64,000 nucleotides of DNA, from positions 1 through 64,000 of the IMG/VR virus record IMGVR_UViG_3300033067_001005; one strand, 5' to 3'. The translations under genes and the position numbers were made by a program. This document shows, piece by piece, positions 7,945 through 34,157 of this stretch (within the stretch, counting starts at the first letter, position 1; each line of letters begins with the position of its first letter). Under the pieces are notes generated by a model. That model was not told the DNA's origin. It made no database searches and was given only the letters and a program-made list of their open reading frames with translations. The DNA is from a virus (taxonomy: Duplodnaviria; Caudoviricetes).

Positions 7945-8015
7945 TCGGGCGTCGTTCAACGGCAGGACCGGGGATTTTGATTCCCCAGATTTAGGTTCGA
8001 CTCCTAGCGCCCGAA
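7945..8015 (+). tRNA. tRNA-Gln(TTG); CCA not encoded
   Basis: Acceptor stem TCGGGCG/CGCCCGA (U1-A72 as in Gln tRNAs); D-stem GTTC/GGAC; anticodon arm GGGGA-TTTTGAT-TCCCC; T-arm TTAGG-TTCGACT-CCTAG. Confidence 0.92.
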
Positions 8016-8026
8016 CGGAGGTTACT

Positions 8027-11780: not shown

Positions 11781-12302
11781 ATGAAGGCGATTCTAATGGC
11801 ACTGGTCATCACCCTCCTCCCCTTCAAGCCGGAGCCGGAAGGCGAAGTCATGAAGAGGGCAGCCAAGGCAGCCGAAGCTGCTGCCTACATCGTGAGTTAT
11901 CGAATCGGAGACGTGAAAAACCCCACTAACGCTCTACGCCAGCGTGAGACGTGGGCACGCATCATGTTCGTCTTTGCCTACTACGAGGCAAGTTGGTATG
12001 CTTCTCCGAAGGGCTCCAACGATGAGGGACGAGCGTGCGGCGTTCTACAGGTACACAATCCTGAGAAATACGTGACCGGCTACGACTGCAAGTCCGTACG
12101 GGGCAGCCTAGAGAAGGGCTTTGACGTGGGCCTAGCTCTGATGATGCGTCTAGAGAAGCAGTGCGGGAGCAAGAAGGCTGCTCTAACTGCTTACGCCACT
12201 GATGGGGCCTGCCACAACTGGACGCTTCCGCTGGTGGTAAAGCGTTGCAAAGAGGCGGGACTAACGGAAGAGTGCGAGCTTCCACTGAAGAAAGCGGCAT
12301 AG
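11781..12302 (+). CDS. Lysozyme-like / lytic transglycosylase (SLT-like) protein with N-terminal hydrophobic anchor (start corrected from 11745)
   Basis: YYEASW...SNDEGRACGVLQVH matches the E-S...G..G..Q lysozyme-fold motif; ALTAYATDG; MKAILMALVITLLP N-terminus. Confidence 0.65.
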   Translation: MKAILMALVITLLPFKPEPEGEVMKRAAKAAEAAAYIVSYRIGDVKNPTNALRQRETWARIMFVFAYYEASWYASPKGSNDEGRACGVLQVHNPEKYVTGYDCKSVRGSLEKGFDVGLALMMRLEKQCGSKKAALTAYATDGACHNWTLPLVVKRCKEAGLTEECELPLKKAA

Positions 12303-13004
12303 ATGGCAAACGGACAGGGACCGGAGGCTGCGAGAAAGCTCGTAATTGTTCTGTTTAGCGGCGGGCTAGACAGCACGGTGACCCTGGCTAATGCACTGAG
12401 GAGCGGGCACCGTGTGTGCCCGCTTTTCTTTTGCTATGGTCAGCGAAATCAGGGTCTAGAGCTAGCTGCTGCCACAAGCATCGTTAGCTGGCTGAAGAAG
12501 CACTATAGCTTTCTAGATGACCTACTCGTTCAGGGAGTAGCGCTACCCAAGATTGGCGGACTCACCGGGGACGAGGAACTGCGAGAGCCCACCGAAGAGC
12601 AGCTGTTCGACGGTCAGTCGAACACCTACGTTCCAATGAGAAACTTGGTGTTCCTGTCACTAGCTGGAGCAATCGCGGAAGCTAACGAGGCAGAGTCCAT
12701 CTGGATAGGCTCCACATACTCTGACCAGGCATCTCCAGACACTAGAGACACGTTCCTAGCCGCTGTACAGGTAGCTATGATGCTGGGCTCACGAATTGGC
12801 GCCAAAGAACCAATTCGCATTAGAGCTCCGTATGGCGAGCTGAATAGGCTGGTTGTCGTAGAGGATGGGAAGGCCTGGGGCCTTCCTCTGCACCTCACCC
12901 GCACTTGCTACGCAAACAAGCCCAAGCCGTGCAGAGTGTGCAGCGCTTGTAAGCAGCGGGAAAAAGCCTTCAAAGACGCACGCGAGGAAGACCCGGCTCT
13001 GTGA
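12303..13004 (+). CDS. queC: 7-cyano-7-deazaguanine synthase QueC family
   Basis: SGGLDS PP-loop, YGQRN, TYVPMRNLVFLS, and C-terminal Zn site TCY...CRVCSAC. Confidence 0.88.
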   Translation: MANGQGPEAARKLVIVLFSGGLDSTVTLANALRSGHRVCPLFFCYGQRNQGLELAAATSIVSWLKKHYSFLDDLLVQGVALPKIGGLTGDEELREPTEEQLFDGQSNTYVPMRNLVFLSLAGAIAEANEAESIWIGSTYSDQASPDTRDTFLAAVQVAMMLGSRIGAKEPIRIRAPYGELNRLVVVEDGKAWGLPLHLTRTCYANKPKPCRVCSACKQREKAFKDAREEDPAL

Positions 13005-13007
13005 AGC

Positions 13008-13036
13008 TGGACGAAGCACAAGAGCGGGTGTAGATT
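13008..13036 (+). promoter_or_regulatory. Putative sigma70-type promoter
   Basis: TGGACG-17 nt-TAGATT upstream of 13082. Confidence 0.35.
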
Positions 13037-13081
13037 CTCTCTCGTAGGACAGAGGACCTGTTCTATAGAGGAGAAAGCATC

Positions 13082-13324
13082 ATGAAGAAGTTCCTAGGTA
13101 CGTTCGACGGCGGTGGCGGCGGTGGCGGCGGTGGTGGCGGGGGCGCTGGCGCTACCCGTCCGACGGGTCGTCAGCCTGCTGGCCGTCCTACCGGCCGTCA
13201 GCCCGGCATCCTTCAGCGCATCGGCAACGGTATCGTCCGTGGCGCTGGCGCTGTCAGCCGGTTCGCTGGCCGTGTCGTCGGCTCCGCTCGTCGGGGCTTT
13301 GCGGCTGGCCAGGCCGCTCGCTAA
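13082..13324 (+). CDS. Small Gly/Arg-rich basic protein with N-terminal KKFLGTF-D tag
   Basis: Strong RBS AGAGGAG; poly-Gly, duplicated RPTGRQP, amphipathic Arg-rich C-terminus. Confidence 0.75.
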   Translation: MKKFLGTFDGGGGGGGGGGGGAGATRPTGRQPAGRPTGRQPGILQRIGNGIVRGAGAVSRFAGRVVGSARRGFAAGQAAR

Positions 13325-13349
13325 TCTCTAACGACTAAGGGTTTCTTTT

Positions 13350-13382
13350 CCTGGTTGTCACCCGCACTCCTCTACAACCAGG
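13350..13382 (+). other. Perfect 9-bp inverted repeat (hairpin) upstream of the Prp-like gene
   Basis: CCTGGTTGT-15 nt-ACAACCAGG. Confidence 0.6.
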
Positions 13383-13395
13383 CCCCCTAACTCCC

Positions 13396-13755
13396 ATGAT
13401 CAAATGCAAGACCTCTAAAGACGGTGATTGGATCACCTTTAGCGTTAGCGGACACTCAGAAGACACGGGCGACGAAGAGCGCTTTCAAGTCTGTGCCGGA
13501 GTCTCTACGCTAGCTGTGGGCCTTCTAGCACTAACAACTAACGTCGGTAGCAGAGCCAAGCGACTACAGCACGCAGACGGCCACGTTCTAATCGACATCC
13601 CAGCATCCGATGAGGCAATGCTCTCGTCGTTGAAGTTCGTCAAGTACGCGCTAAGGGTGCTGTATTCTGGCTATAGCGAGCATCTAGAGCTTGATTTCGC
13701 AGACGACGTACCGGAGTACGCGCCTTGGCCGAGCCCAGATCCCACGTTGGCGTAG
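13396..13755 (+). CDS. prp: Prp-family (DUF464, ribosomal-processing) cysteine protease; probable virion maturation protease
   Basis: FSVSGH20...VC33AGVS matches the Prp His/Cys catalytic dyad motif GH-x(11-12)-VCAG.S; ~120 aa length and terminal helix-Y-x2-H-L pattern also fit. Confidence 0.8.
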   Translation: MIKCKTSKDGDWITFSVSGHSEDTGDEERFQVCAGVSTLAVGLLALTTNVGSRAKRLQHADGHVLIDIPASDEAMLSSLKFVKYALRVLYSGYSEHLELDFADDVPEYAPWPSPDPTLA

Positions 13756-15362
13756 CTGGTAGCTGCCCCCTAGATACGGAGAAGCTGACGGACCTAATCC
13801 TGGCGTTCGTCGTCCTCTTCAACGAGCCTATGGGGATCCACCTGTACAGGTATCAACGCCTGTTCATGCGTGAGATCATCCACAGCCTACTAGACCATAA
13901 CGGTGCGACGCTGACAGGGCTTTGGAGCCGGCAGAGCGGGAAGAGCGAGGCTCTTTCTAGTCTCGCGCCGGCTCTTTGTGTTTTCCTACCTGCCTTGGCT
14001 AAAGCCTTCCCCGGCGACCCAAGACTAACGGACTACACAGAGGGCTTCTGGGTAGGCATCTTCGCTCCGCGATTGGACCAGAGCGGAATCATCTACGGTC
14101 GTATTAGAAGCAAGGCGGAGAAGCCTAGCTCTCTAGCGCTGTACCAGGATAACGACATCGGGATTCAGCTCACGCAGAGCCGAGGAGACCAAGTCTCTTG
14201 GAGCAACGGGAGCTTCGTCGCGTCTCAAACTGCCAGCGAGCAGAGCAGCGTTGAGGGTAAGACCTATCACCTCGTGATTCTAGACGAGGCGCAGCTAATC
14301 AGCCGGACCAAGGTCAACAAAGAAATCGCCCCGATGTTGGCCGCTACCAACGGCCTAATGGTGAAGATTGGCACTGCCAGCTTCTATAAGGGCGGCTTTC
14401 ACGACTCCATCGTCTACAACCTGTCCTACGAGAAGAAGACAGGTAGGCGCTACCACTTCGAGTTCCCGTACGACGTCGTAATAGAAGAGAAGCGACGCAC
14501 GTACGAAGAGACGAAGAAGCCCTTCCACCTGAACTACGAAGCCTGGGTCTCTACTGAGCTAGCTAAGCTCGGCGGGAACAAAGACAACGAAGAGTTCAGG
14601 ATGAACTTCCGCCTGATGTGGTTCGAGGCCAACACGGGCGCGATCGACCGCGATGCCTTCTATGACGCGGCAATTGAGACTCTAGAGGCGAATCAACCCA
14701 CCTTTAGAGGAGACCTCGTTGCTGGTCTGGACTACGGAAAGAAGCACGACGCAACCATCCTGACGATCATGTCGGTCAATCCGAAGGAAATCGTCGACAC
14801 TAGGGCTATGATTCGTCCTGGCGACGACATCCCTGTCTACCACGAGAAGACCATCATCGCTTGGTTTGAGCTAGAGGGAAGGCGCTGGAAAGAGATCCAG
14901 GGCAAGGTCGTTGCCGCTCTCTCCGAATACGCCGTTCACACACTAGTAGCTGACTCAACTGGCGTGGGAGACCCACTAACAGAGCAGCTACAAGACCTGA
15001 TTCCCAGCATTAGAGTCATTCCGTTCGTTCTGTCAGCGCAGGGCAATGACCTGATGTACAAGCTCTATATCCAAGAGATGGAAGCGGGGCGTCTAAAGTA
15101 CGCTGCCGGACCAGACACAGCTGCAACGAAGGTCTATAAGAACTTCGTACACGAACATGAGCAGTTGCAAAAACTGCGGAACAACCTCTATATCAAGTGC
15201 TGTGCCCCGGAAGGGGAACACGACGACTACCCAGACTCGGCCGCACTTTGCTGCTATGCTGCAACGGTCCCTAGGGAATCGTTCATCGAACAGACTCAAA
15301 GCCCGTTCAAGTCGCGTCGTAGCAATGCTGCTGGGCGCTCTCGGTCAGATAGATACAGATAG
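13725..15362 (+). CDS. terL: Terminase large subunit
   Basis: Walker A SRQSGKS, Walker B LVILDEAQ, motif III IGTAS, nuclease AGLDYGKKHD and HDDYPDS; TTG start preceded by GGAG. Confidence 0.93.
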   Translation: MAEPRSHVGVAGSCPLDTEKLTDLILAFVVLFNEPMGIHLYRYQRLFMREIIHSLLDHNGATLTGLWSRQSGKSEALSSLAPALCVFLPALAKAFPGDPRLTDYTEGFWVGIFAPRLDQSGIIYGRIRSKAEKPSSLALYQDNDIGIQLTQSRGDQVSWSNGSFVASQTASEQSSVEGKTYHLVILDEAQLISRTKVNKEIAPMLAATNGLMVKIGTASFYKGGFHDSIVYNLSYEKKTGRRYHFEFPYDVVIEEKRRTYEETKKPFHLNYEAWVSTELAKLGGNKDNEEFRMNFRLMWFEANTGAIDRDAFYDAAIETLEANQPTFRGDLVAGLDYGKKHDATILTIMSVNPKEIVDTRAMIRPGDDIPVYHEKTIIAWFELEGRRWKEIQGKVVAALSEYAVHTLVADSTGVGDPLTEQLQDLIPSIRVIPFVLSAQGNDLMYKLYIQEMEAGRLKYAAGPDTAATKVYKNFVHEHEQLQKLRNNLYIKCCAPEGEHDDYPDSAALCCYAATVPRESFIEQTQSPFKSRRSNAAGRSRSDRYR

Positions 15363-17460: not shown

Positions 17461-19068
17461 ATGGCCGGCTCATCGATGCAGTTCTTGGCACTACAGGGCG
17501 GAAGCGGGACAGCAATCCCGTTTGCCAGAGAGACGGAGCCCAGTGCTATTGCCACCGTAGCTATGAGCCCCAAGGACTCGCAGCGTCTTCGGCGGTACGA
17601 GGAACACTGGCGCTTCTACCAGGGGCGACACTGGAACTTTGACCGTGAGGATGGCGAGCCTCTAGTTACCTCTAACTACTGTCGCGCAATCGTTCACAAG
17701 AAAGCTGCCTGGCTTGTAGGGAAGGGCATGGTGCTCGACACCCCGCAGGCCTTGCAGCACGTGACGAAGCCAAAGCTCGTAGAGACGTGGAAGTACAATA
17801 ACGAGCAGATTCTCCTGTGGAAGCTAGCCGTAACTGGCGGCGTCACTGGAGACTGCGTTGTACTGGTCACCGTGAAGGAACCGACGGGCGTAGAGCGCCG
17901 CTTCAACCCGAACACGGGCGGGCGCATCCACTTGCGGCTTGTAATGCCACACCAGTACTTCCCGCGCTACAACCCCCTCAATAACGAAGAGCTAATCGGC
18001 GTCCGCATCATTACTGAGGTGGATGCTCCCGCTCCCGTAGAGAGGGTGGGGATGCGTGGCACTGGCAGGACCGTCGTCCCTCGTAAGCGCCGCTACGTGG
18101 AAGACATCACGGCGGAGAAGATTGTAGAGGGGTACGAAGATGGGCAGATGACCGAGAAGCCGAACGTACTGGGAGAGATCCCCGTCGTTCACTGGGTCAA
18201 CCTACCGTTCCCCGGCGAAGTCTTCGGACAATCGGACCTAGACGGCGCAATCGACCTACAGCGTGAGCTGAACGAGAAGTTGACCGACCTCTCGGACATC
18301 ATCAACTATCACGCGGCGCCAATCACCATCGTGACGGGTGCAAAGGCTAAGGCACTAGAGAAGGACGCCCGCAACATGTGGACGGGCCTTCCTGCTGACG
18401 CCAAGGTGTACAACCTCGAGCTGGGAAGCTCCGGGGACACTAACTACAGGTACGTCGAGCTTGTGCGCAAGATGCTGCTAGAGCTTGCCAGCGTTCCTGA
18501 GGTAGCCCTGGGTGGCATCATCGCCATCTCCAATACGGCAGCCGCGGCACTAGAGGTGCAATTCCAGCCTCTGACGGAAGCCATCGACCAGAAGCGGCCG
18601 AACTATGAGCAGGGCCTAGAGCGCGTGAACTATCTGATTCTGCGCTGGTGGCAGACCATGGAGAAGTTCAACCTCCCCGTCGACCTCTGTAAGGAATGCG
18701 GCGGAAGGATTCTGACCTTCCAGGTCAAGACCAAGGATGGCAAGCAGCGCACGATGCGCAAATGCTACCTAATCGACCCGCAGACTCTAGAGTTCATGGA
18801 GCCTGACGATGTCCGCGTTAACGTAAAGCGCGAATACTCGTTCGGCACCGAGACTCGGATGATGCCCTACGGCCAGGTAAAGAAGGAGTTCTTGCAGCGC
18901 TCCGCCTCCTACTGGGACCCCATGCCCAGAATCGATAAGGTCGAAGAGGAGCAAAGCAAGCTAGACATGGCGGAGCAGAAGAAGGAAGAAGCCGCTAAAG
19001 AGCAAATTGCGGCAGCTGGTTATGACCCTGAGCAGCTGGCGGCTGCGGAGAAGCCAGGAGAAGAATAA
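17461..19068 (+). CDS. Portal protein, N-terminal part (SPP1 gp6-like), ending inside a Cys-containing insertion
   Basis: RLRRYEEHWRFYQG, NYCRAIVHKKAAWLVGKG, LGEIPVVHWVN, GQSDL..AIDLQRELN..LTD..DIINYHAAP, SGAALEVQFQPL-like motif; position after terL. Confidence 0.88.
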   Translation: MAGSSMQFLALQGGSGTAIPFARETEPSAIATVAMSPKDSQRLRRYEEHWRFYQGRHWNFDREDGEPLVTSNYCRAIVHKKAAWLVGKGMVLDTPQALQHVTKPKLVETWKYNNEQILLWKLAVTGGVTGDCVVLVTVKEPTGVERRFNPNTGGRIHLRLVMPHQYFPRYNPLNNEELIGVRIITEVDAPAPVERVGMRGTGRTVVPRKRRYVEDITAEKIVEGYEDGQMTEKPNVLGEIPVVHWVNLPFPGEVFGQSDLDGAIDLQRELNEKLTDLSDIINYHAAPITIVTGAKAKALEKDARNMWTGLPADAKVYNLELGSSGDTNYRYVELVRKMLLELASVPEVALGGIIAISNTAAAALEVQFQPLTEAIDQKRPNYEQGLERVNYLILRWWQTMEKFNLPVDLCKECGGRILTFQVKTKDGKQRTMRKCYLIDPQTLEFMEPDDVRVNVKREYSFGTETRMMPYGQVKKEFLQRSASYWDPMPRIDKVEEEQSKLDMAEQKKEEAAKEQIAAAGYDPEQLAAAEKPGEE

Positions 19069-19466
19069 TGGGAATCTTCGCTAGTATCGCAGCCAAGCTA
19101 GGCCTAGGCGGCTCAGGAAACGCTGCTACACCAAAGGGCGTTACTGTCGGCGCTAGAGGCGGGAAGTACTACCTAGATGCTAACGGCAAAAAGGTGTACG
19201 GAGACCCTACCAAGGTGAAAGCCAAGGCCGCCGCGGCGCAGAAAGAGGCCCTACCAAGCAAACAGAAGGACAAGGCCGACGCGCACACGACCAAGGCTTT
19301 CGCTGCCTCTAGTAAGGCAAAGGACGCCGCTTCGCACAAGGCAGCTGCTGACGCGCACAAGATCGCAGCGGAGCATCACAGCAAGATAAACACTAAGTAC
19401 TCCAAGATGAAGGCCAAGCACCACAGAGAGATGGTGGCCGAGCACAGCAAGAAAGCGAAGGGCTAG
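19068..19466 (+). CDS. Lys/Ala/His-rich basic protein with GARGGKYYLDANGKKVYG motif
   Basis: AGGAG RBS and TAATG coupling; paralog of 19471..20079. Confidence 0.75.
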   Translation: MGIFASIAAKLGLGGSGNAATPKGVTVGARGGKYYLDANGKKVYGDPTKVKAKAAAAQKEALPSKQKDKADAHTTKAFAASSKAKDAASHKAAADAHKIAAEHHSKINTKYSKMKAKHHREMVAEHSKKAKG

Positions 19467-19470
19467 AACC

Positions 19471-20079
19471 ATGGGCGTGTACGGAAAGCTCGCAGAAAAG
19501 TTAGGCGTCAGTGGTGGAGGCTCTAAAGGAACCCAGACTGGGCCCCGAGGCGGAAGATACTATCTGGATGCCAGCGGGAAGAAGGTTTATGGAGAGCCAC
19601 CCAAAGGCTCTTCTGGTTCTAAGGCCAAGAACAAGGCAGCTGACGACCCCGTAGCCATGGCTAAGAAGTTTAGTAGTCAGGCTCATTCCGCTTCCTCCGC
19701 TGCATACGATCCTAATTCCCACCATATGGCAGGAAAGGCACATCTTCTAGCTGCACACCTACAAGGCAAAGCGGGTGACAAGGCAGCTCAGGCCAAGCAC
19801 CTAGATGCAGCCGAGGCACATGGCGACAAGTCTGCTGCTAATCTTCCAGCTGGCTACGTAAGCCAAATCAAAGCTGAAGCAGTAATGGCTAAAGCTGAAT
19901 TGACCGGCAAGAAGATGAAGGGCTCCGGTGACATCATCACTAAGGGAGCCATGTCTGGGCATCTTTACCACGGAGAGTTGGAAGGAAAGCATGTCTACTC
20001 TCGCTCTCTGGAGGGGGGACGTGGCATGGGCCATACAGCTGACTCCGCCTACAAGTTTTCCGATAAGAAGGTCCACTAA
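19471..20079 (+). CDS. Lys/Ala/Gly-rich basic protein with GPRGGRYYLDASGKKVYG motif
   Basis: Paralog of 19068..19466 (shared N-terminus and motif). Confidence 0.75.
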   Translation: MGVYGKLAEKLGVSGGGSKGTQTGPRGGRYYLDASGKKVYGEPPKGSSGSKAKNKAADDPVAMAKKFSSQAHSASSAAYDPNSHHMAGKAHLLAAHLQGKAGDKAAQAKHLDAAEAHGDKSAANLPAGYVSQIKAEAVMAKAELTGKKMKGSGDIITKGAMSGHLYHGELEGKHVYSRSLEGGRGMGHTADSAYKFSDKKVH

Positions 20080-20723
20080 TGGCACTCTTTCTAATTCCAA
20101 GCGTCTCAAAGCTCCTCGGGGCAAAGGACAAGCCCAAGGGCGAGACACCCGAGCCTGAGACCGGGGAAGCTAATGCAAAGCCCGGTCAGCTCGTTGCCCA
20201 CGACATCGACATCCCGGAGGAGCCGGAAGAGGTCAACGCCGTCGTTCAGGAATGGGACAACGAGAAGAACCAGTTCGTCGAGCGCAACCTAGGCAAGCGT
20301 CTTCTCGTGCCAACAGGCTGCGAAAGGCCCACGTACTTTTCCCCGTTCGAGAACTCGGTTACGCTGAAGAGCGCCCTACCGCGTGACAAGGAAAAGGACA
20401 CTAACCTGTACCAAGCCTGGCAGACTAATGGCTGGGTAAGCAGACACTGGGTCATGAGCCGTCTAGAAGAGGGCATCTCTATCTCGCAGATGGACAAGGA
20501 AATCGCGGACGATATCCCGTTCATTCTCTCTATTCAGGGAAAGCCTGACCCCTCTGGCCAGGTTGCCCAGACAAACGGACTTCAACAGCCCGGTGACGGG
20601 CCTGGCGACAACAACGGAGCGCCGCTACCCCCCGGACCAGGCCCTGGCCGCGGGAACAAGTTCGCTCCTGGCGATGGCCTAGCAAAGGCCCCACCCAACG
20701 CTTCACCGGGAAGGAAGATGTGA
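20079..20723 (+). CDS. Probable portal protein C-terminal part
   Basis: NSVTLKSALPRDKEKD...NGWVSRHWVMSRL...QMDKEIADD resembles the V.F...LP.D...G..S.......L...E.++I..E tail of SPP1-like portals, which is missing from 17461..19068; ends in a Pro/Gly disordered tail. Confidence 0.65.
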   Translation: MALFLIPSVSKLLGAKDKPKGETPEPETGEANAKPGQLVAHDIDIPEEPEEVNAVVQEWDNEKNQFVERNLGKRLLVPTGCERPTYFSPFENSVTLKSALPRDKEKDTNLYQAWQTNGWVSRHWVMSRLEEGISISQMDKEIADDIPFILSIQGKPDPSGQVAQTNGLQQPGDGPGDNNGAPLPPGPGPGRGNKFAPGDGLAKAPPNASPGRKM

Positions 20724-22123: not shown

Positions 22124-25018
22124 ATGCCCGCCCAGAACCTGATTCCTAACTCCGAAAACGTGTCGGCGTGGGGAATTCTGACGAATGTTGCTGCTGCACT
22201 AGCCTTGGCTGTCGCTGGTCCGGATGGCGCACTGGGCGGAGTGTCTCTTGTTACAGCCAATGGGGGCGGCGGAGCACTAAACCACTTCGCTGAGATGGCT
22301 AATGCGCAGATGCCCTACTTTGCGCAAGGTCTAGGATCGGCAGCTTTCCAGCTGAACGCAGGCAGAGAGCGTGTCTCTGGAGCGTGGATCAAGGCTGGGA
22401 CGACCACTAAGGTCGTTGTGGGCAACGGGCGACACACGAACTGGTATCGTGCGCTATTCAACCTGTCTAACGGCACCGTGGACACGGAAGAGAACTGCCG
22501 CGCGTACATCGAGCCGGGAGAAAACGGCTGGTACTACTGTTGCGTCGTCTATATCGTGCAACCCCTAGAGGCCAACGTTCAGCAGGACTCCGTAGTAGTT
22601 GCTCCTGTGCCAGCGGCACAGACGGGAACAGCCAGCATCGCCTACAATCACGCTAGCGAGTCCTGCTACGCCTTTGGAGCAACGCTAGCTCTGACCAACG
22701 GTCCTCCTCCGTACCAGAAGACCACGACGCAGACCAATGAGGCTCGTGCTCCTAGAGCACGTAACACTAGACAGAACAACATCCGTTGGTCTGAGAACCC
22801 GAGTAATGCTGTCTGGACGAAGTATGCTGCCTCTTGTGCAGCTTCAGCTGTGAACTCCCCACTAGGGGGCCTGGCGGAAGCAATCATTGAGGACGGCACT
22901 CTAGGATTCCACGGTGTGTCTCAGGGCGGAACTGCGGACAAAGGCATCTATACGATTACTGCGCTAGTAAAGGCAGGGACTCGTTCTTGGTGCCTTCTAG
23001 CTACAGCTGGGACAGGTGTAGGCGCTTACTTTGACCTGACTCTAGGTGTAACTGGCTCCATCTTCGGCTCACCGCTAGCAGCTTCGATAGAGCCGGCAGG
23101 AGACGGGTGGTGGTGGATCAGCGTAACCCACGCTATCCCAGCAGCTATTAGAGCTTTGGAGCTTTATGCAGCTACGGGTAATGCGGCGGCCAACTACACA
23201 GGCACTAACGGAAACACAGCACTCTACGTAGCGGGAATGTCTCTTGCGCAAAGCTGGGGTCCGCCTGACCACGTGAAGACCACCGTTGCCGTGATCAATC
23301 CAAAGATTGGTGTTAGAGGCAGAGCCAGGCAGAACTTGACTCCTGCCAGCGAGGACTTCACGGCCGGCTTTGCCTGGTTCAAAGAGAGCGGAGCTATTAC
23401 TGTCACTGCTGACGTGGTAGCTGGACCTGATGGAGCCCTGACGAAGGCCGATCGTATCCAGTGGACATCAGGAATCCTGCGATACGTTGGCCAGAACATC
23501 AACTTCACTAGAGGTCCTTACACAGTCTCTGTGTGGCTGCGTTCAGCAACAGGTGGAACTCAGTTGGTAAGGCTGCGGCTTCCCCTCATTCCTGGCACCT
23601 CTAACCAGGACAGTCCTGTGTTGACCTTGACGCCAGACTGGCAGCGCTTCTCTTTCTCTGTGGAGATACAGTCGTCCAACGTCACTCTGTCCACTGTGCT
23701 CATAGAGAGCGACGCTGGGCTAAGTGCCGCAGACTTCTACGCTTGGGGCTTCCAGCTCACCCAAACGGCGAGAGAAACGCAGTACGTGAAGTCGACCACG
23801 CAGGCGGTGCTCGGTCGCGCTCCGCGCTCGCTCATGGGCAAGCAGAACCTCCTGCTTTCGTCGCAGGGGATGCACAGCGACGCGGTCAACTGGTTCCCAA
23901 CGCTTGTTACTCGGTCTGCGTCCCCAGCGCTGGCACCCGATGGAACGGCCACAGTCTCGCGCATCGAGGACACGGACCCAGCAAACTACGGCTACATCCG
24001 CCAGCAGATCAGCATCCCGCCGGGCGTGCGCAGCTATTGCTTTAGCATCTACCTGCGCAAGACGGCGACGTCTGCGGTCTGCGGATGGAACTACCTGGCG
24101 GTAGGGGGAACCACCCAGCCCGGAAGCATGCGTGTCGCGCCAGCCACGGGCGCCTGGTCGTCTGGCGGCACTCCTGGTGGCGTGGAGGATTGCGGCGACT
24201 ACTGGCGCGTCTGGAACGTGGTCCGAAACCAGGGGTCTAGTGCGCTGCGCGTCGACTTTTATGTGGCGACGGGGACGAGCTTCAACGGCGGCGACAACGC
24301 CGCGGGCGTCGGCTGGGTCGACGTGTGGGGAGCGCAGTGGACGGAGGGCGAGGGTCCCACCGAGTACGTCGCAACGACGACCGCGGTCGTGAACACCGGA
24401 GCTCCGCGCCGTCGCGCTCCACGCCAGAACGTCGGCGCGAACAGCGACATGCTGAGCGGAGCGTGGAGCATTGCGAATGCGACCCGCTCCGCTGGGCCGG
24501 CAGGACCAACAGGAAAGACTGGCATTCTAGTACTGGAAGATGGCAGCGCAGCAGCAGTCCACTATATCACGCAGACTGTAACCTCGCTTGGTACAGGTCG
24601 CCTTGCTACTCTAACGTTCTATGCGAAGCGTGCTACGGCAGGATCTCGTCAGTGGATTGCTTGCGCTGGAAACGGCGGAAACTCTGCACTATGGTTCGAC
24701 CTGATAAACTTCAAACGAGGCACAGGCGGCGGAGGCTGTGTAGCTTCAACGATAGAGCAGGTAGAAGGCGGCTACGCAAAGATCAGCATTTCGTGGATCC
24801 AAACAGCCGGACTAGAGGGAGTACGTATCTACATGGCTGACGCTGACGGCAGCGTTACCTTCAATGGAGACAGCGGAGCCTCTGGAGGCATCTACGTCTT
24901 TGAGGCACAAGTAACTGAGGGCTACGGACCTCCGCCTGAGCAAGTGAGTACCAGGAATACTCCTGTGGGCTCTCAAGCGCAGGAATACGACAGAGGGCCA
25001 AGAGGCCTCTACGCATGA
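22124..25018 (+). CDS. Head-spike/fibre-like protein with five tandem ~190-aa CBM-like jelly-roll modules
   Basis: Each module begins QN[LN]...S[EQD]...W and ends [AW]G.Q[LWV]...GP..Y..TT. Confidence 0.7.
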   Translation: MPAQNLIPNSENVSAWGILTNVAAALALAVAGPDGALGGVSLVTANGGGGALNHFAEMANAQMPYFAQGLGSAAFQLNAGRERVSGAWIKAGTTTKVVVGNGRHTNWYRALFNLSNGTVDTEENCRAYIEPGENGWYYCCVVYIVQPLEANVQQDSVVVAPVPAAQTGTASIAYNHASESCYAFGATLALTNGPPPYQKTTTQTNEARAPRARNTRQNNIRWSENPSNAVWTKYAASCAASAVNSPLGGLAEAIIEDGTLGFHGVSQGGTADKGIYTITALVKAGTRSWCLLATAGTGVGAYFDLTLGVTGSIFGSPLAASIEPAGDGWWWISVTHAIPAAIRALELYAATGNAAANYTGTNGNTALYVAGMSLAQSWGPPDHVKTTVAVINPKIGVRGRARQNLTPASEDFTAGFAWFKESGAITVTADVVAGPDGALTKADRIQWTSGILRYVGQNINFTRGPYTVSVWLRSATGGTQLVRLRLPLIPGTSNQDSPVLTLTPDWQRFSFSVEIQSSNVTLSTVLIESDAGLSAADFYAWGFQLTQTARETQYVKSTTQAVLGRAPRSLMGKQNLLLSSQGMHSDAVNWFPTLVTRSASPALAPDGTATVSRIEDTDPANYGYIRQQISIPPGVRSYCFSIYLRKTATSAVCGWNYLAVGGTTQPGSMRVAPATGAWSSGGTPGGVEDCGDYWRVWNVVRNQGSSALRVDFYVATGTSFNGGDNAAGVGWVDVWGAQWTEGEGPTEYVATTTAVVNTGAPRRRAPRQNVGANSDMLSGAWSIANATRSAGPAGPTGKTGILVLEDGSAAAVHYITQTVTSLGTGRLATLTFYAKRATAGSRQWIACAGNGGNSALWFDLINFKRGTGGGGCVASTIEQVEGGYAKISISWIQTAGLEGVRIYMADADGSVTFNGDSGASGGIYVFEAQVTEGYGPPPEQVSTRNTPVGSQAQEYDRGPRGLYA

Positions 25019-26126: not shown

Positions 26127-27236
26127 ATGAGAAACCTTCGTAAGAAGTTCCTGGGGACGTTCGATGAAAAGGCGGCTCCTGCCGCTGGTGAGCAAGGGGC
26201 GCCTGGGGGACAACCTCCGGCGCCTTCTGCGCCTGTAGACATTCAAGCCATCGCTAGTGCGGCAGCTGCGGCAGCTTCGGCTCAGACCGTAGAGAGGCTT
26301 CGCAAGTCGGCTGAAGATGAGGCCGCGGAAGAGGCTAGAGCGGCAGAGGAAGCTCGGCTCGCGGAAGAGGCCAGCCAGTCTCTAGAGGCTCACCGTCGCC
26401 ACACCGATAGACAGGTAGAGGCGATTCGTGCGGAGCTTATGGCTACACAGGCTGCTCTAAAGGCCTCGCAGCTTCAGACCTATAAGACGGAGCGGATCTC
26501 TCAGGTGAGAGCGGCCGGCGTAGGTATCGTCGTAGAACTCGTCACTGGGAACAGTGAGGCGGAGATCGAGCAGTCGATTCAGCACGCTGCTAATGTGTAC
26601 GCCACCTACCAGAAGCAGATCATGGCCGCGCAGACTCCGGCAGTACCTGCCGCCGCGGCTGCTCCGGGGATTCCCCAAGCAGTAGTGCCCCCTCCCCCGG
26701 CAGCTGCCCCGCCTGCACCGGGGACGCTCACTCCCAGCGCTCCCACGGCGGAGAACGCCCAAGTGTTTGACGCCGAGACCCTTGCCTACCTAACCTCCCC
26801 CGAGGCGGCAAGAAACGGCGATTACCAGAAGTACCGCCCTCTAATTCATGCCCAGCTTCAGAGCAAGTTCTCTGGAGGCACTCCTACCTCTAATGTTCGT
26901 TCTACTTTGCAGCACCCCCAGGTACTGGCTCAGCGAGGAGCACCCGGCACGCCGGCCCCTCCGATGCCTGTTCAGAGAGGGGATATGCCAGGCGGCGTGA
27001 GAGTACCTATCGTTCAGGTAGGCCCGCCCCCGATGAACGCGCAGCCGCAACCAGGGACTAATCCCCGCTTCGGTGCGCCTCCCGCAGCTCAGGGCGCCCC
27101 ACAGCCCGCAGAGCTGGATGCAGCATACAATCGGGGTCTAGTACCAACGCTGGACCTGGAAGCCATTCGAGCCCGAGCACAAGCGGCTGCTGACAAGTAC
27201 CGCCCTGCTCCTGCTCAACCCGTAGTGACTAACTGA
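26127..27236 (+). CDS. Capsid scaffolding protein with N-terminal KKFLGTF-D tag
   Basis: Directly upstream of the major capsid gene; coiled coil plus Pro/Ala-rich disordered regions. Confidence 0.8.
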   Translation: MRNLRKKFLGTFDEKAAPAAGEQGAPGGQPPAPSAPVDIQAIASAAAAAASAQTVERLRKSAEDEAAEEARAAEEARLAEEASQSLEAHRRHTDRQVEAIRAELMATQAALKASQLQTYKTERISQVRAAGVGIVVELVTGNSEAEIEQSIQHAANVYATYQKQIMAAQTPAVPAAAAAPGIPQAVVPPPPAAAPPAPGTLTPSAPTAENAQVFDAETLAYLTSPEAARNGDYQKYRPLIHAQLQSKFSGGTPTSNVRSTLQHPQVLAQRGAPGTPAPPMPVQRGDMPGGVRVPIVQVGPPPMNAQPQPGTNPRFGAPPAAQGAPQPAELDAAYNRGLVPTLDLEAIRARAQAAADKYRPAPAQPVVTN

Positions 27237-27252: not shown

Positions 27253-28230
27253 ATGTCGTCGATGACTTCGGCCGTAAACAGCGGCCCCGGATTCTCGCAG
27301 CTGGTTGCTGCTGTTCGTGATGTGTACTCACAGGAGATCTACTTCTCCGCGATGCCGAACCTGCGCTTCGACCAGTTCGCCACTAGAAAGGACGAACTCA
27401 CTGGCCAGCCTGGTGCGACTATCGTCCTTCCCAAGATGGGGACGATCAAGCGTGGTGGCACCCTCACTGAGGGCGTCCGCATCCAGGGTAAGTCGATGAG
27501 CATGTCGACCACCACGATCACCGTGGCTGAGAAGGGTAACGCCATCCTCATGACCGAGCGTCTTCTACAGACCTCGTTCTATGACAACATGGCTGCCGCC
27601 TCGATGCTCCTAGGGCGAGACTTCGCTCTAGTGAATGACACGGACCTTCGTGACATCGCGCTCACCGCGACTAACAAGGTCTACGCCGGCAAGAAGGCCG
27701 CTCGTACGGACCTCGTTGGTGGTGACACCGCCGATACGACGTTCCTCATGGACATCGGGGAGAAGCTGGAGATCAACTCCTCGCCGAAATGGGGTAATGA
27801 CTTCTACGTCAGCTTCTTCCACCCGCATGGACTAGCGAAGCTCCGTCAGAGCGTCGGCTGGGTCAACGCGGCGCACTACCAGGGCGCTACCCCGCTCTTC
27901 TACGGTGAGGCTGGCCGCTGGAACGACATCCGGTTCGTCAGCACCTCTATGATGCCGAACGGCTTCAACAGCGCTCTGAACGACGCTGGCGAGTTCGCGG
28001 ACCCCGGCTACGTCGCTGCTCTAGCGAATGGCACGGCCGGCAACCAGACCACCATCTACCAGTGCGTCACCTTCGGCGAATACAGCTACGGCCAGGGCAA
28101 CGCTCTGAACGTCGAGCTTCGCGACAACGGTGTCCAGGACTACGGCCGTGAGCACGGCCTCGCCTGGTACGCCATCTGGGGCCAGGGCCTCCTAGAGAAC
28201 AACAACCTCGTCGTCGGCGAGCACGCCTAA
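27253..28230 (+). CDS. Major capsid protein (N4-gp56-like HK97 fold)
   Basis: RFDQFA..K.EL..QPG.TI, LTEGV.I, ITV.E.GNA...TE.L...S..D, HP, GE.GR..D.RF and DYGR..GLAWY..WG motifs. Confidence 0.9.
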   Translation: MSSMTSAVNSGPGFSQLVAAVRDVYSQEIYFSAMPNLRFDQFATRKDELTGQPGATIVLPKMGTIKRGGTLTEGVRIQGKSMSMSTTTITVAEKGNAILMTERLLQTSFYDNMAAASMLLGRDFALVNDTDLRDIALTATNKVYAGKKAARTDLVGGDTADTTFLMDIGEKLEINSSPKWGNDFYVSFFHPHGLAKLRQSVGWVNAAHYQGATPLFYGEAGRWNDIRFVSTSMMPNGFNSALNDAGEFADPGYVAALANGTAGNQTTIYQCVTFGEYSYGQGNALNVELRDNGVQDYGREHGLAWYAIWGQGLLENNNLVVGEHA

Positions 28231-28264: not shown

Positions 28265-28672
28265 ATGAGACTCATCGCTCTAATGGCCGTAGCGGCCACG
28301 TTTCACGCCAAGTACCTCGACACGTTCGTTGCCCGTACGGCTTCCAACGTGCAAGAGCTGCCGCCGGGGTACAACGACGAGAACCGTCGTCTCTTCCAGG
28401 CCGACCTCACCACGGACGTGACCGCGGCGGACACGATCGACGTGACCCTCCCGGCCAACCTTCGCGCCGTCGGCGTTCAGGTTCTAGGGGCCTTCTTCGA
28501 GAAGTGGACCACCTCTTCTGCGATCGGCGCGAGAACTAAGACGCGCATTCCCGTAGTGGTCACCAGCTACGTCGAGGCAACCGGCGTCGTGACCCTCACC
28601 ACCTCTACCGTCAACCTGTCGATCGCTACTGAGTCCGGGCGCGTCTTCCTAGAAGTCTGCCCGTACAAGTAA
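28265..28672 (+). CDS. Putative head-associated protein with N-terminal KYLDTF-V tag-like segment
   Basis: Position after the MCP; GGAG RBS; beta-rich. Confidence 0.6.
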   Translation: MRLIALMAVAATFHAKYLDTFVARTASNVQELPPGYNDENRRLFQADLTTDVTAADTIDVTLPANLRAVGVQVLGAFFEKWTTSSAIGARTKTRIPVVVTSYVEATGVVTLTTSTVNLSIATESGRVFLEVCPYK

Positions 28673-30909: not shown

Positions 30910-31640
30910 TGGCCTACATCGGTATCCTAGAAGCCTTTAGAGCTAGACTGGAAGGCCAGGACCCGAAGTACGTACCTCGGCTGCCTTCTACTCCGCTGAA
31001 GGATGACCCTCGCATCGCTGCCGAAGTCGACGGAGGGGCTGTAGCCGGCGGAGCAGGCTCCACGGTCAACGTGAATGGGCTCACCATCAACATCGCAGAT
31101 GATGACGACAGCGGGCAATGGAGTGTAGAGCTGTGGCCAATGATTACGTACAGGGTCGTGGCCAACAACCCCCGCTACAACGAATGGATTTCTAATACAG
31201 ACCCAGAGCAGGGTATCGGCGACGGCTACCAGATCCCCATAGAGACCTCTTCGCAGGAACTCAAAGAAGGGAAGTTCAGCCTGGGAAGCAGCCCTCGCCT
31301 CTTCAAGACCCGCCCTGTCGAGATTCCCATAGACTTCCTCGTTGAAGTCAAACTAATGGCCAACAACAACATCACGTCGGCCCTCCTCGTTGACTACGTC
31401 TACAGAGTTCTACCTCCACGAAGCTTCATCCGCGTGCCGATGAAGGACGGTACGTTCGCCTCTTGGGACCTTGATATGCAAGACTTCAAGGACCTGGATG
31501 TACGGTCGGCTGTGCTCTCTGGCAATGCCGAGAAGGAATACGCTAAGGTCTTCACGTACCGTGTCGAGGGCTACCTAGACAACACAGACCTAGCGAAAAT
31601 TAGCAGCCGCGTTAGAAAGGTTTCCATCAACGTAACCTGA
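30909..31640 (+). CDS. Tail terminator/sheath-stabiliser-like protein
   Basis: Synteny before the sheath; WPMITY and FTYRVEGYLD motifs. Confidence 0.55.
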   Translation: MAYIGILEAFRARLEGQDPKYVPRLPSTPLKDDPRIAAEVDGGAVAGGAGSTVNVNGLTINIADDDDSGQWSVELWPMITYRVVANNPRYNEWISNTDPEQGIGDGYQIPIETSSQELKEGKFSLGSSPRLFKTRPVEIPIDFLVEVKLMANNNITSALLVDYVYRVLPPRSFIRVPMKDGTFASWDLDMQDFKDLDVRSAVLSGNAEKEYAKVFTYRVEGYLDNTDLAKISSRVRKVSINVT

Positions 31641-31649
31641 GAGGACGAC

Positions 31650-31874
31650 ATGCCTACCATTAGAAGCAACTACAGCCGTTACGTAGAAGTCCATCTGGAG
31701 ACTGAGTGCGTCACTCTCAATCCAGGTGACTCCCATTCGTTTACGGGGCCTGTGACGCCCCACCTACAGGAGCTAATTGCTTCTAATATGGTTACGCTGG
31801 TTCAAGATGAGCCCGAAGCGGAGCCTGTTCCCATCACCAAGCCCGGCGTTCACGCTGAAGAGGAGAGTGTCTAA
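31650..31874 (+). CDS. Small hypothetical tail-associated protein
   Basis: GAGG RBS; coupled to the sheath gene. Confidence 0.6.
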   Translation: MPTIRSNYSRYVEVHLETECVTLNPGDSHSFTGPVTPHLQELIASNMVTLVQDEPEAEPVPITKPGVHAEEESV

Positions 31875-33625
31875 TGGCTACTGAGAACTTCGACGCACCT
31901 GGCGTAAGCGCCAGAGTCGGAAGAGCTGCCGTCCCCGTAATCCAGGCCTCGCCTGTGAGCATCGGCGGGTTCATCATGTACGCAACGAAGGGTCCGCACG
32001 ACAAGGCCGTCCGCGTCGACAGCTTCGCCAAGTTCGTCCGCATCTTCGGCTCCTATGACACGAACACGTACGGGCCTGATGCGGTCCGCGCGTTCTTCGA
32101 CAACGGGGGCAGAGCCTGCTGGATCGTCCGCATCACTAGAAGCGGCGGCTCCGGTTCCAACGTGAAGGCCACCTTCACCCTTCAGAGCGCAGCGCTTGCT
32201 AACACGATGGTCTGCACGGCTGTCGGCTACGGCGTGTCCGGCAACGGCATGAAGGTAGTGGCGGCGAAGGAAGACACCAAACTGGGACTAATCGGAGCTG
32301 TAACGGCTACTGGTGCGCAGACCGTCATCAACTGCTCGTCTGCCATTGCTGCCAAGCTACGCGTGGGTGACCAGATCGCCATCACGGAAGGCACTACGCA
32401 GCGCGGCATCGTCTCGCGCATCGACGACACCAAGATCATCCTAGTAGCGTCTGTGACTGTCCCCGCGGGCGGCTACAATACGACTACGACGATCATCACT
32501 AAGGAAACCTTCTCCATTACGGTGTATGACCAGGGCGTTGTCGTCGCTGGTCCTTATCGTAACCTGGCGATGTCCAGCCTAAGCCTGAAGGACTACTTCC
32601 TAACGCGGCTGAACACGACGGATGACGAGAACCCGGTAACGTTCACTGACTCTGGCCTCTCCATGGCTGGCGGCGTGGATACTCGCCCCGTCAATACCGT
32701 TTCCGGCGGCGACATGCTCGTAGGTGGCTCTGAGATGACCCAATCGGCTGATGCCGATTACAAGGGCTCTTCGGCTACGTCTACCGGCGTCTATGCCTTC
32801 GACAAGGTTGCCTCTGGGCAGGTCAACATCCTCGCCATTCCGGGCGTAACTGGCACCAGCGGCGCCGTCTCCAAGGCTCTAGTGGAATACTGTGCTGGCA
32901 GAGAAGACGTTCACTGCGTCATCTCTCCTGCACTGGCTACTGCGGTATCCGCGGCTGTCACGTACAAGCAGGACAATATCGGAGCCTACCGCTTCGGCGC
33001 GATGTACTACCCCTGGGTGCAGATCCTGGACCCGATCAGCGGGCAGCCTGCTTACGTGCCGCCGGACGGCTACGTCATGGGTCTGTACGCTCGTACGGAT
33101 AGAAAGCGCGGCGTACAGAAGGCTCCTGCTGGCGAGGCAGAGGCTCTAGTAGGTACCATCGGTGTGGAGAGAAAGCTCTCTAGAGATGACCGTGGCACCC
33201 TCTACACGGTCAACATCAACCCCATCGAAGACATTGCCGGCAAGGGGCAATGCGTCATGGGAAGCCGCACTCTGGAGAAGGGCCTGTACGGACAGGTCTC
33301 CGTCTCTAGAACGTATACCTACCTGGCTGTGACGCTTCGTGAAGGCACCCGCTGGGTCATCTTCGAGCCGAACAACGAGGACACCCGCGCTCGCTTGCGC
33401 CGGTCCGTCTCCGACTACCTAGAGCGCGAATGGAGAAAGAACCTTCTAAACGGTGATACCGTTGACCAGGCGTTCTACTGCATCTGCGATGCCAGCAACA
33501 ACCCCGATGTCATCGTCAAGGCCCAGCAGATGGTTGCCGATGTCGGTGTGAACGTGCCGGACGTCACCGAGAACCTAGTAATCAACATCAGCCAGGACCA
33601 GCGCGGTTCTAGCGCTGCGGCCTAA
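31874..33625 (+). CDS. Contractile tail sheath protein
   Basis: APGV, FFDNGGR.CWIVR, YYPWVQILDP, PPDGYVMGLYARTD..RGV.KAPAG, G.RTL, WVIFEPNN...R motifs. Confidence 0.95.
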   Translation: MATENFDAPGVSARVGRAAVPVIQASPVSIGGFIMYATKGPHDKAVRVDSFAKFVRIFGSYDTNTYGPDAVRAFFDNGGRACWIVRITRSGGSGSNVKATFTLQSAALANTMVCTAVGYGVSGNGMKVVAAKEDTKLGLIGAVTATGAQTVINCSSAIAAKLRVGDQIAITEGTTQRGIVSRIDDTKIILVASVTVPAGGYNTTTTIITKETFSITVYDQGVVVAGPYRNLAMSSLSLKDYFLTRLNTTDDENPVTFTDSGLSMAGGVDTRPVNTVSGGDMLVGGSEMTQSADADYKGSSATSTGVYAFDKVASGQVNILAIPGVTGTSGAVSKALVEYCAGREDVHCVISPALATAVSAAVTYKQDNIGAYRFGAMYYPWVQILDPISGQPAYVPPDGYVMGLYARTDRKRGVQKAPAGEAEALVGTIGVERKLSRDDRGTLYTVNINPIEDIAGKGQCVMGSRTLEKGLYGQVSVSRTYTYLAVTLREGTRWVIFEPNNEDTRARLRRSVSDYLEREWRKNLLNGDTVDQAFYCICDASNNPDVIVKAQQMVADVGVNVPDVTENLVINISQDQRGSSAAA

Positions 33626-33635
33626 AGAGGACCCA

Positions 33636-34157
33636 ATGCTGCACTCGCTTCCTGGATTCCGTGAATTTCTAGCAACGTTCGGTAGAACCTCGCAAGAGGA
33701 CCCTCTAAAGACCTTCGCCTACCGCGTGGAGATTGACAACTTCGCGCGCATGGGCTTCTCCAAGGTCACCGGACTAAAGCCTAAGGTAGACGTTGTCACG
33801 TACCGTGAGGGCGGCGACAATACTACCGAGAAGAAGAGCCCCGGCATGACCAAGTGGGATGACCTCACGCTAGAGCGTGGTATTATCGTCGCCACTGGAG
33901 CCGGCGATAGAGACTTCGTCCTCTGGTTCGCGCAGGTCTACGACGTGGGCGCGAAGAAGGTCGGAGCTAAGTCTGACTTCAGACGCAACATCGATATCGT
34001 GCTCCTCGACAGAGAGGGCAAGACCGCGAAACGTTGGCGCGTCCTGGAGGCCTGGCCTAGTGGTGGCGTACTTCTGCCCGACCTCGACGCACTGGGCAGC
34101 AACAACGCGATCGAATCGCTTACGATTACGCACGAGGGCGCTCGGGAAATCCTGTAA
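33636..34157 (+). CDS. Tail tube protein (T4 gp19-like) with a 15-aa N-terminal extension ending FLATF
   Basis: DP...F..RVEID, GF.KV.GL, V.YREGGDN, K.PG.TKW..LTLERG, W....AWP, LD...N..AIE.LTI.HEG. Confidence 0.93.
   Translation: MLHSLPGFREFLATFGRTSQEDPLKTFAYRVEIDNFARMGFSKVTGLKPKVDVVTYREGGDNTTEKKSPGMTKWDDLTLERGIIVATGAGDRDFVLWFAQVYDVGAKKVGAKSDFRRNIDIVLLDREGKTAKRWRVLEAWPSGGVLLPDLDALGSNNAIESLTITHEGAREIL

Follow-up and report, generated by a model that had tools for sequence, protein, structure and literature searches.

The phage of virus record IMGVR_UViG_3300033067_001005 encodes a protease of the Prp family, and short N-terminal segments of a common type precede four of its other proteins. The reading that we prefer, with a probability of roughly 0.8, is that this phage-encoded Prp recognizes the K[F/Y]LxTF leaders, cuts after the Phe and so trims the four proteins, the core of the system being the protease together with the small basic protein encoded next to it.

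The window, i.e., the whole stretch of DNA analyzed, consists of the first 64 kb (64,000 nt) of the contig of 75.5 kb (75,544 bases; estimated completeness 83%), labelled G000 in this study. Virtually all genes of the contig lie on the + strand, and those for terL, the portal, the scaffold-like protein, the HK97-type capsid, the sheath, and the tube of the T4 gp19 family make the phage myovirus-like (Table 1). The closest deposited phages are distant, the capsid protein being 43% identical to that of Bacillus phage BCD7. A search for the host with terL in 185,579 species genomes yielded none, no match exceeding 31% identity (Streptomyces, Chloroflexota, and others).

Table 1. Features of the window (positions in the window). 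The last column gives the predicted propeptides, i.e., the residues that the proposed cut would remove.
Feature	Position	Strand	Length	Matches and context	Predicted propeptide
QueC-like gene	12303..13004	+		Pfam PF06508, E 9.4e-44; conserved upstream neighbour of the module	
Small Gly/Arg-rich basic protein	13082..13324	+	80 aa		8 residues, MKKFLGTF (13082-13105); mature start DGGGG...
Prp-family cysteine protease	13396..13755	+	119 aa	PF04327, PHROG 4478, fold; His20/Cys33/Ser37	
terL	13725..15362	+	545 aa	TTG start; weak Terminase_6N and Terminase_6C matches; conserved neighbour downstream of Prp	
Portal	17461-19068		535 aa		
Scaffold-like protein	26127..27236	+	369 aa	Ala/Pro/Glu-rich; directly 5' of the capsid gene	12 residues, MRNLRKKFLGTF (26127-26162)
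Major capsid protein	27253..28230	+	325 aa	HK97-type; PHROG 1357, E 6.7e-41; untagged	
Post-capsid beta-sandwich protein	28265..28672	+	135 aa	Directly 3' of the capsid gene	21 residues, ending AKYLDTF (28265-28327)
Tail sheath	31874-33625				
Tail tube protein	33636..34157	+	173 aa	T4 gp19 family; Pfam PF06841, E 1.6e-33, from residue 26	15 residues, MLHSLPGFREFLATF (33636-33680); mature start GRTSQEDPL

The Prp-family protease

Prp is known as an essential ribosome-maturation enzyme of Firmicutes. The earlier note on this DNA had taken the ORF that runs into terL for a Prp-like protease on account of its catalytic motifs, and both features that it described were found: the ORF reads ...SVSGH20...QVC33AGVS..., and its last 31 nt overlap the start of terL, the TTG codon at 13725. 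The Pfam profile PF04327 (Peptidase_Prp) matched with E 5.6e-8 and 33.4 bits against the cut-off of 27, covering profile positions 1-89 of 90 (33.2 bits in the genome-wide search), and PHROG 4478 ('peptidase') matched with E 3.6e-10. The AF2 model built on five homologues (pLDDT 79.6, pTM 0.74) was compared with the PDB via Foldseek and had the Prp fold that the note had called for, all top matches being Prp (7kld, 2g0j/2g0i, 1s12, 2idl, 7jvs, and 4peo; probability 1.0). The best 11 PDB matches shown (ranks 1-10 and 13) were all Prp or Prp-like, with TM scores of 0.55-0.70 by query length, and included the structures from S. aureus (7kld, 7jvs, 4peo), S. mutans (2g0j), Thermotoga (1s12), and S. 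pneumoniae (2idl).

Among 40 homologues from the profile search, G19, H20, and C33 were invariant and S37 was nearly so, and the His and Cys were invariant in the 13 phage homologues too. The diversity of the 40-row alignment precluded its use in a pattern scan. The catalytic motifs align to tGHae and vCAsVStla of S. pneumoniae Prp (2idl), and G19, H20, C33, and S37 correspond to Gly21, His22, Cys34, and Ser38 of S. aureus Prp (SaPrp), the activity of which is abolished by the H22A and C34A substitutions (PMC9405229). By its sequence, fold, and catalytic residues, the ORF is a protease of the Prp family (PF04327/MEROPS C108). The acidic Asp31 of SaPrp, essential in S. aureus, stabilizes the active-site loop (PMC9405229). 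No counterpart of it was found at equal spacing, the residue three positions before Cys33 being Phe (T, P, T, and V in relatives); Glu28, located five residues before Cys33 and invariant in the five closest phage Prps, may stand in its place. The complex predicted for the Prp dimer and tube residues 1-60 scored 0.27 against the mark of 0.32, which weighs neither way on binding.

Close relatives of the protease were sought by several routes. The word-based protein search returned the query alone, the single-protein scan of viral contigs returned none, and tblastn of Prp and of P0005 against 50,697 deposited phages gave no match. The Prp profile search of 1.8 billion proteins yielded 768 Prp-like matches, 39 of them at E<=1e-10, and several were placed on contigs. 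One protein of the same profile family (P0014; L211, 2776-3093) is encoded on a contig of 69% GC with neither terL nor a small basic protein nearby, its neighbours including Gp80-like and peptidoglycan-binding proteins. Five further profile matches (P0046, P0048, P0050, P0051, and P0077) are 189-518 aa long with the Prp domain at the N-terminus, and in some proteins Prp may be fused to other domains.

N-terminal tags and their specificity

The four tagged N-termini listed by the earlier note were all present: MKKFLGTF/DGGG in the small basic protein (13082), MRNLRKKFLGTF/DEK in the scaffold (26127), MRLIALMAVAATFHAKYLDTF/VAR in the post-capsid protein (28265), and MLHSLPGFREFLATF/GRT in the tail tube (33636), the slash marking the putative cut. 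As described there, the two KKFLGTFD copies differ synonymously (TTC CTA GGT ACG TTC GAC versus TTC CTG GGG ACG TTC GAT). The AF2 model of the post-capsid protein (pLDDT 82.8) has a beta-sandwich beginning at residue 23; the fold search gave no convincing PDB match, and the protein is probably head-associated.

When the entire 75,544-base contig was translated in six frames, [FY]LxTF turned up five times, four times among the N-terminal 25 residues of + strand genes and once in a short antisense frame; the remaining coding residues, about 24,000, held none. In the first 26 residues of 104 ORFs, four occurrences were observed against 0.035 expected from the amino-acid composition (Poisson P about 6e-8, for a motif defined post hoc on this genome). 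The same enrichment was found in the independent relatives carrying Prp, with the motif occurring 15 times against about 0.5 expected and lying nearly always 2-16 residues past the start codon. It may be asked whether the likeness arose by chance, or whether the starts were miscalled so that the motif lies in an untranslated leader, given that start calls of long ORFs are unreliable in GC-rich DNA and that the gene at 28265 has two in-frame ATG codons. The P value of about 6e-8 and its replication in the relatives speak against chance; Shine-Dalgarno-like GGAG/AGGA sequences precede all four tagged starts and no alternative start was found 3' of the motif near the starts of the conserved domains, which speaks against miscalling. 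We consequently give next to no weight to either explanation.

The tag consensus is K-[FY]-L-x-T-F followed by G, D, N, or S. Among 20 tags chosen by their match to [FY]LxTF, P4 Leu, P2 Thr, and P1 Phe were invariant, P5 was Phe or Tyr, and P1' was G, D, N, or S; P6, a position outside the search pattern, was Lys in 16 of the 20. Codons varied synonymously at every position of the tag, so the signal acts at the protein level. P2 was concordant within genomes: the two tags of L208 have Ile, the two of L209 have Asn, and all tags found (two to four per genome) in G000, G001, G004, G005, G009, and L210 have Thr. The exception is G003, in which P2 is Thr, Arg, and Ala within one genome, so that either the P2 specificity is loose or the G003 list contains false sites. 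No clear pattern of a Prp residue co-varying with P2 emerged from the 13 Prp sequences.

Bacterial Prp cleaves the L27 leader at LQ[FL]F followed by Ala (PMC9405229), the bL27 leader having the form MLxx(D/N)LQ(F/L)F/A(S/H)KK. The earlier note was right that the phage tags retain P4 Leu and P1 Phe of this leader and differ at P2, which is Thr and not Phe or Leu; P3, P5, and P6 differ as well, P3 being free and not Gln, P5 aromatic, and P6 Lys. In SaPrp, P1 Phe and P4 Leu make the key contacts, P1 Phe stacking on His22 and P4 and P6 Leu lying at the dimer interface, and P3 Gln orders the active-site loop (PMC9405229). Unlike this Gln, P3 is variable in the phage tags.

One more candidate, MKISAQEAMMF/GG in the ORF following terL (at about 15373), was rejected as a fifth tag, the protein being no longer than its untagged L210 orthologue. 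In G003 (L018/L019), two copies of the motif lie deep in reading frames: MTKQWFLKTF/RSSQ at 23125, 321 codons into an open frame (313 into the called ORF of 1238 aa), and YLGTF/NANPP at 31436, at residue 206 of a 268-aa ORF. They could be internal cleavage sites or products of miscalled starts.

Relatives with and without Prp

Related metagenomic contigs were retrieved with the capsid protein and an alignment of terL (terL identity 42-59%), and through the Prp profile search. Prp was carried by 13 contigs (G000, G001, G003, G004, G005, G010, L043, L045, L047, L048, L208, L209, and L210), and the gene order was the same in all of them: QueC-like gene, which holds the equivalent position in the relatives, small Gly-rich basic protein, Prp, terL. 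The small protein was tagged in 13 of 13, with starts of the form M(x0-4)[KR][FY]Lxx F/GG. The tags comprised MKKFLGTF/DGGG, MKFLNTF/GGGG, MKFLKTF/GGG, MKKFLETF/GGGG, MKFLQTF/GGGG, MRYLGTF/GGF, MNKFLTKF/GGGG, MKFLKVF/GGAG, MNKFLGIF/DGGG, MKFLGNF/GGGG, and MFLGTF/NTG, and, in the most distant Prp-bearing member, MKTISEFEMF/GGKGGG. Some genomes encode two tandem copies of the protein. No Pfam family was found for the small basic proteins, and a search at E up to 10 with the 13082 protein and nine of its counterparts gave no L27 match. Untagged Gly-rich basic proteins are encoded by at least two of the genomes without Prp; the tag looks added to a protein that existed before. In G010 the small protein adjoining Prp is the sole tagged protein, which points to Prp and the basic protein as the core of the system.

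Beyond this pair, the set of substrates varies between genomes. Scaffold orthologues were tagged in G001 (MKHCKYLGTF/N), G003 (..FRFLKRF/D), G004 (..SKFLGTF/D), G005 (..KKFLGTF/N), and L208 (..PKFLGIF/D), and the scaffold of the Prp-less G006 was untagged. An ORF following terL carried the tag in G003 (about 57113, MKRFLQTF/SKL) and L209 (11934-12419, MKFLSNF/SEL). In L210 it was present on an ORF of 262 aa that follows the portal (12292-13080, ..LSRFLGTF/EEG). Among nine post-capsid orthologues, four had an extension ending in [FY]Lxx[FY] and five began at the junction; three of these five came from Prp-bearing genomes, and the tags were thus gained and lost gene by gene.

A natural control was provided by the relatives devoid of Prp (G006/G007, the complete genome G008, G013, G014, and L052). 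Pfam detected no Prp in G006-G008, G013, and G014, and the custom HMM detected none in the whole of G006-G008 (E up to 10) and none up to 10 kb on either side of terL in G013, G014, and L052 (E up to 1e-3). In the terL tree, all nine members of clade A have Prp; in clade B, G010 with its Prp is sister to the Prp-less G006, G008, G013, G014, and L052, and the outgroups are without Prp. The presence of Prp in clade A and in G010 requires at least two changes of state on this tree, and at each change the tags go along with Prp. Few independent evolutionary events underlie this pattern, much of the co-occurrence coming from one large clade.

The tail tube proteins of the Prp-less genomes start with MARAAVEDPI, MARPTLMDPL, MARASVEDPL, or MARITYEDPI, i.e., the pattern MAR(A/P/I)..(E/M)DP(I/L), and those of the Prp-bearing genomes with ...[FY]LxTF/GRTSQEDPL and similar sequences. 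The mature length is equal for the Prp-less proteins after Met removal and for the predicted cut form. The link between protease and tag, guessed in the earlier note from one genome, has thereby gained comparative support: tags accompany Prp in the 13 contigs and are absent from the Prp-less sister clade, in which the N-termini of the tube and post-capsid proteins coincide with the predicted cut, and P2 is concordant within genomes. An FLNTF sequence near an N-terminus in the Prp-less G006 was rejected as a tag; the protein concerned is a gp25-like baseplate component, and the sequence aligns with the LGxGxxxP segment that untagged homologues of this family have at their own N-terminus.

The same tags might be cut by a protease of the host, a matching host Prp or another enzyme, with the phage Prp serving another target such as the adjoining basic protein only or a host protein. 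Host Prp processes the capsid and scaffold of 80alpha and probably a tail protein of phi13 (PMC5744158). A host enzyme with such specificity is possible, and in the distant relative G010 the tag is on the adjoining small protein alone. On the other hand, tags on the tube, scaffold, and post-capsid proteins were confined to genomes with a phage Prp or to fragments without the terL region, and they were missing from all Prp-less relatives. Within a genome, the tags match the motif of the small protein adjoining Prp, the variants with Ile and Asn at P2 included. The Prp-bearing contigs span GC contents of 42% to 63%, suggesting varied hosts, and a single motif across them fits a phage-borne enzyme better. 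We regard cleavage by a host protease as quite improbable.

In the cultivated relative BCD7 (L040, NC_019515.1, 8048-15015), Pfam gave no Prp match, and the scaffold, capsid, and first tail tube share an N-terminal motif of their own (..FMTVHA/EE, ..LFQNVFA/DA, and MLKKLFMNVHA/DS). It may represent a different leader system.

Proposed processing, known systems, and head assembly

In the proposed mechanism, the Prp-type cysteine protease, probably a dimer like bacterial Prp, would use Cys33 as the nucleophile together with His20, recognize the leader K(P6)-[F/Y](P5)-L(P4)-x-T(P2)-F(P1), and cut after the Phe. The protease and the adjoining small basic protein, encoded between the QueC-like gene and terL, would be the constant core, and the tags on structural proteins would be secondary recruits, gained or lost one gene at a time. 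By analogy with L27 and 80alpha, trimming may keep proteins that self-assemble or bind nucleic acids in a pre-active form.

Alternatively, the tag could be an uncleaved signal for docking of a chaperone or scaffold or for translation initiation, its association with Prp reflecting shared ancestry only. Most Prp-bearing genomes indeed fall in a single clade, and in 80alpha the N-terminal sequence of the scaffold is needed for assembly while its cleavage is dispensable (PMC5744158). Such a role does not account well for an extension that stops exactly where the untagged orthologues start, nor for P1 Phe and P4 Leu, which fit known Prp recognition; the synonymous codon variation indicates a signal at the protein level, and the assembly of the tagged proteins at the head interior, the head surface, and the tail argues against a single docking partner. 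We consider the uncleaved signal unlikely. A docking role and the cleavage by phage Prp that we favour are compatible with each other.

The phage enzyme shares its family, fold, and His/Cys dyad with bacterial Prp (C108; S. aureus Prp, B. subtilis YsxB), and its predicted substrates resemble those of the bacterial and 80alpha systems in starting with a short leader that has Phe at P1 and Leu at P4. Bacterial prp lies between rplU and rpmA, whereas the phage gene adjoins terL and the phage encodes no L27; its constant substrate would be the small Gly-rich basic protein, unlike that of the bL27-processing Prp. In staphylococcal phages, host-Prp motifs occur on the capsid, the scaffold, and a major tail protein (phi13) (PMC5744158). 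The 80alpha/phi13 and the present systems are alike in placing one tag on non-homologous self-assembling head and tail proteins. They differ in that 80alpha relies on the host enzyme and has a tagged capsid, whereas here the enzyme is phage-encoded and the capsid untagged; moreover, the 80alpha-type leaders copy the L27 motif of the host, whereas the tags described here share only P1 Phe and P4 Leu with it.

The gut phage MT836218.1, with the gene order portal, Prp, scaffold, capsid and a capsid protein starting with MEMNLQMFA/EN, resembles our phage in its phage-borne Prp and a matching N-terminal structural tag, the capsids being distantly related. Its tag is L27-like, its Prp lies between portal and scaffold, and its capsid is tagged. 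In our phage, by contrast, the tag no longer copies the L27 leader, Prp precedes terL and is accompanied by a basic protein, and the capsid carries no tag. The earlier note had also named pneumococcal phage Cp-1 as encoding a Prp homologue, which has to be corrected: the Cp-1 protease is described as the only other member of MEROPS clan CR and not as one of the Prp family (PMC9405229). Cp-1 is similar in that a phage-encoded cysteine protease removes the N-terminal extension of a structural protein (PMC9405229); it differs in that the enzyme comes from a different family of the clan and shortens the capsid protein by about 40 residues, and no multi-protein system of short tags has been described for it. 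The literature searched contained no report of a phage-encoded Prp acting on substrates of its own, nor any experimental characterization of phage-encoded Prp with L27-like tags.

In T4, the prohead protease gp21 acts on capsid-targeting leaders of internal proteins, and the adenovirus protease matures the basic core proteins pVII and pX. The likeness of these systems to the one proposed here is an analogy: a virus protease, short consensus leaders, and several virion proteins, among them small, very basic, DNA-associated ones. Their folds are unrelated, and they act inside the prohead or virion, whereas a tagged tail tube suggests a free cytoplasmic enzyme in our phage. We tentatively put forward, as one possible extension of the preferred reading, that Prp and its neighbour form a conserved two-gene cassette in which the protease matures a nucleic-acid-binding core protein, very basic and rich in Gly, Arg, and Lys, that the leader was repeatedly copied onto the scaffold, decoration, tube, and further proteins, and that co-evolution of P2 (T/I/N/K/V) gives orthogonal pairs independent of host L27. 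If it were true, the main task of Prp would resemble that of the adenovirus protease on pVII and pX, and the basic protein would perhaps condense DNA.

New in the present system are a tag that departs from L27, a basic protein as the constant partner, and the natural control of a sister clade that has lost both Prp and tags. The lineage amounts to a natural experiment, with a phage-borne protease, a tag that has moved off the L27 motif, varying sets of tagged proteins, and a sister clade without both in which the mature proteins have kept their lengths. It makes testable whether the leader controls the timing of self-assembly or prevents aggregation of the proteins that bear it, which positions set Prp specificity, a point relevant to work on Prp inhibitors, and whether small tag-protease pairs could be used as orthogonal tools for tag removal. 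It also offers a first functional handle on the widespread, unannotated small Gly-rich basic proteins of phages.

The earlier note had proposed a host-independent maturation system acting on head and tail parts and had recognized no other prohead protease. Profile searches in G000, G003, G006, and G008 found no prohead protease of the S78, S77, or ClpP/S14 types at E up to 0.1, the test for S77 being weak as the control genomes gave nothing either, and the ORFs between portal and scaffold contained no protease families. The tags on head and tail proteins are in line with the idea of a maturation system; its role as a replacement for a prohead protease does not hold, the capsid being untagged and the Prp-less relatives also lacking any recognizable protease of this kind. 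Prp is therefore better seen as an accessory layer of trimming. The N-terminus of the capsid protein is conserved between Prp-bearing and Prp-less relatives, and heads in this group as a whole seem to form without cleavage of the capsid protein. Since relatives without Prp exist, a virion of this type can be built in the absence of the system.

Several minor observations concern the surrounding genes. The portal of our phage (535 aa) is similar in length to those of G004 (547 aa) and L210 (544 aa), and those of G001, G003, G005, G006, G008, and L208 have 705-753 aa, i.e., about 200 residues more. The short portal fits with the C-terminal part having been split off or replaced (window 17461-20723). 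The terL of L208 (7873-9975, 700 aa) contains an intein (PF14890), and the terL ORFs of G013 (809 aa) and G014 (915 aa) (L054 and L109), far longer than 545 aa, probably carry inteins or other insertions. A single tRNA-Gln gene (anticodon TTG) is located at 7945-8016 of the window. Finally, two QueC-like paralogues occur in several relatives, and in the clade without Prp the gene immediately 5' of terL is QueF-like; these QueC- and QueF-like genes suggest 7-deazaguanine DNA modification across the phage group.
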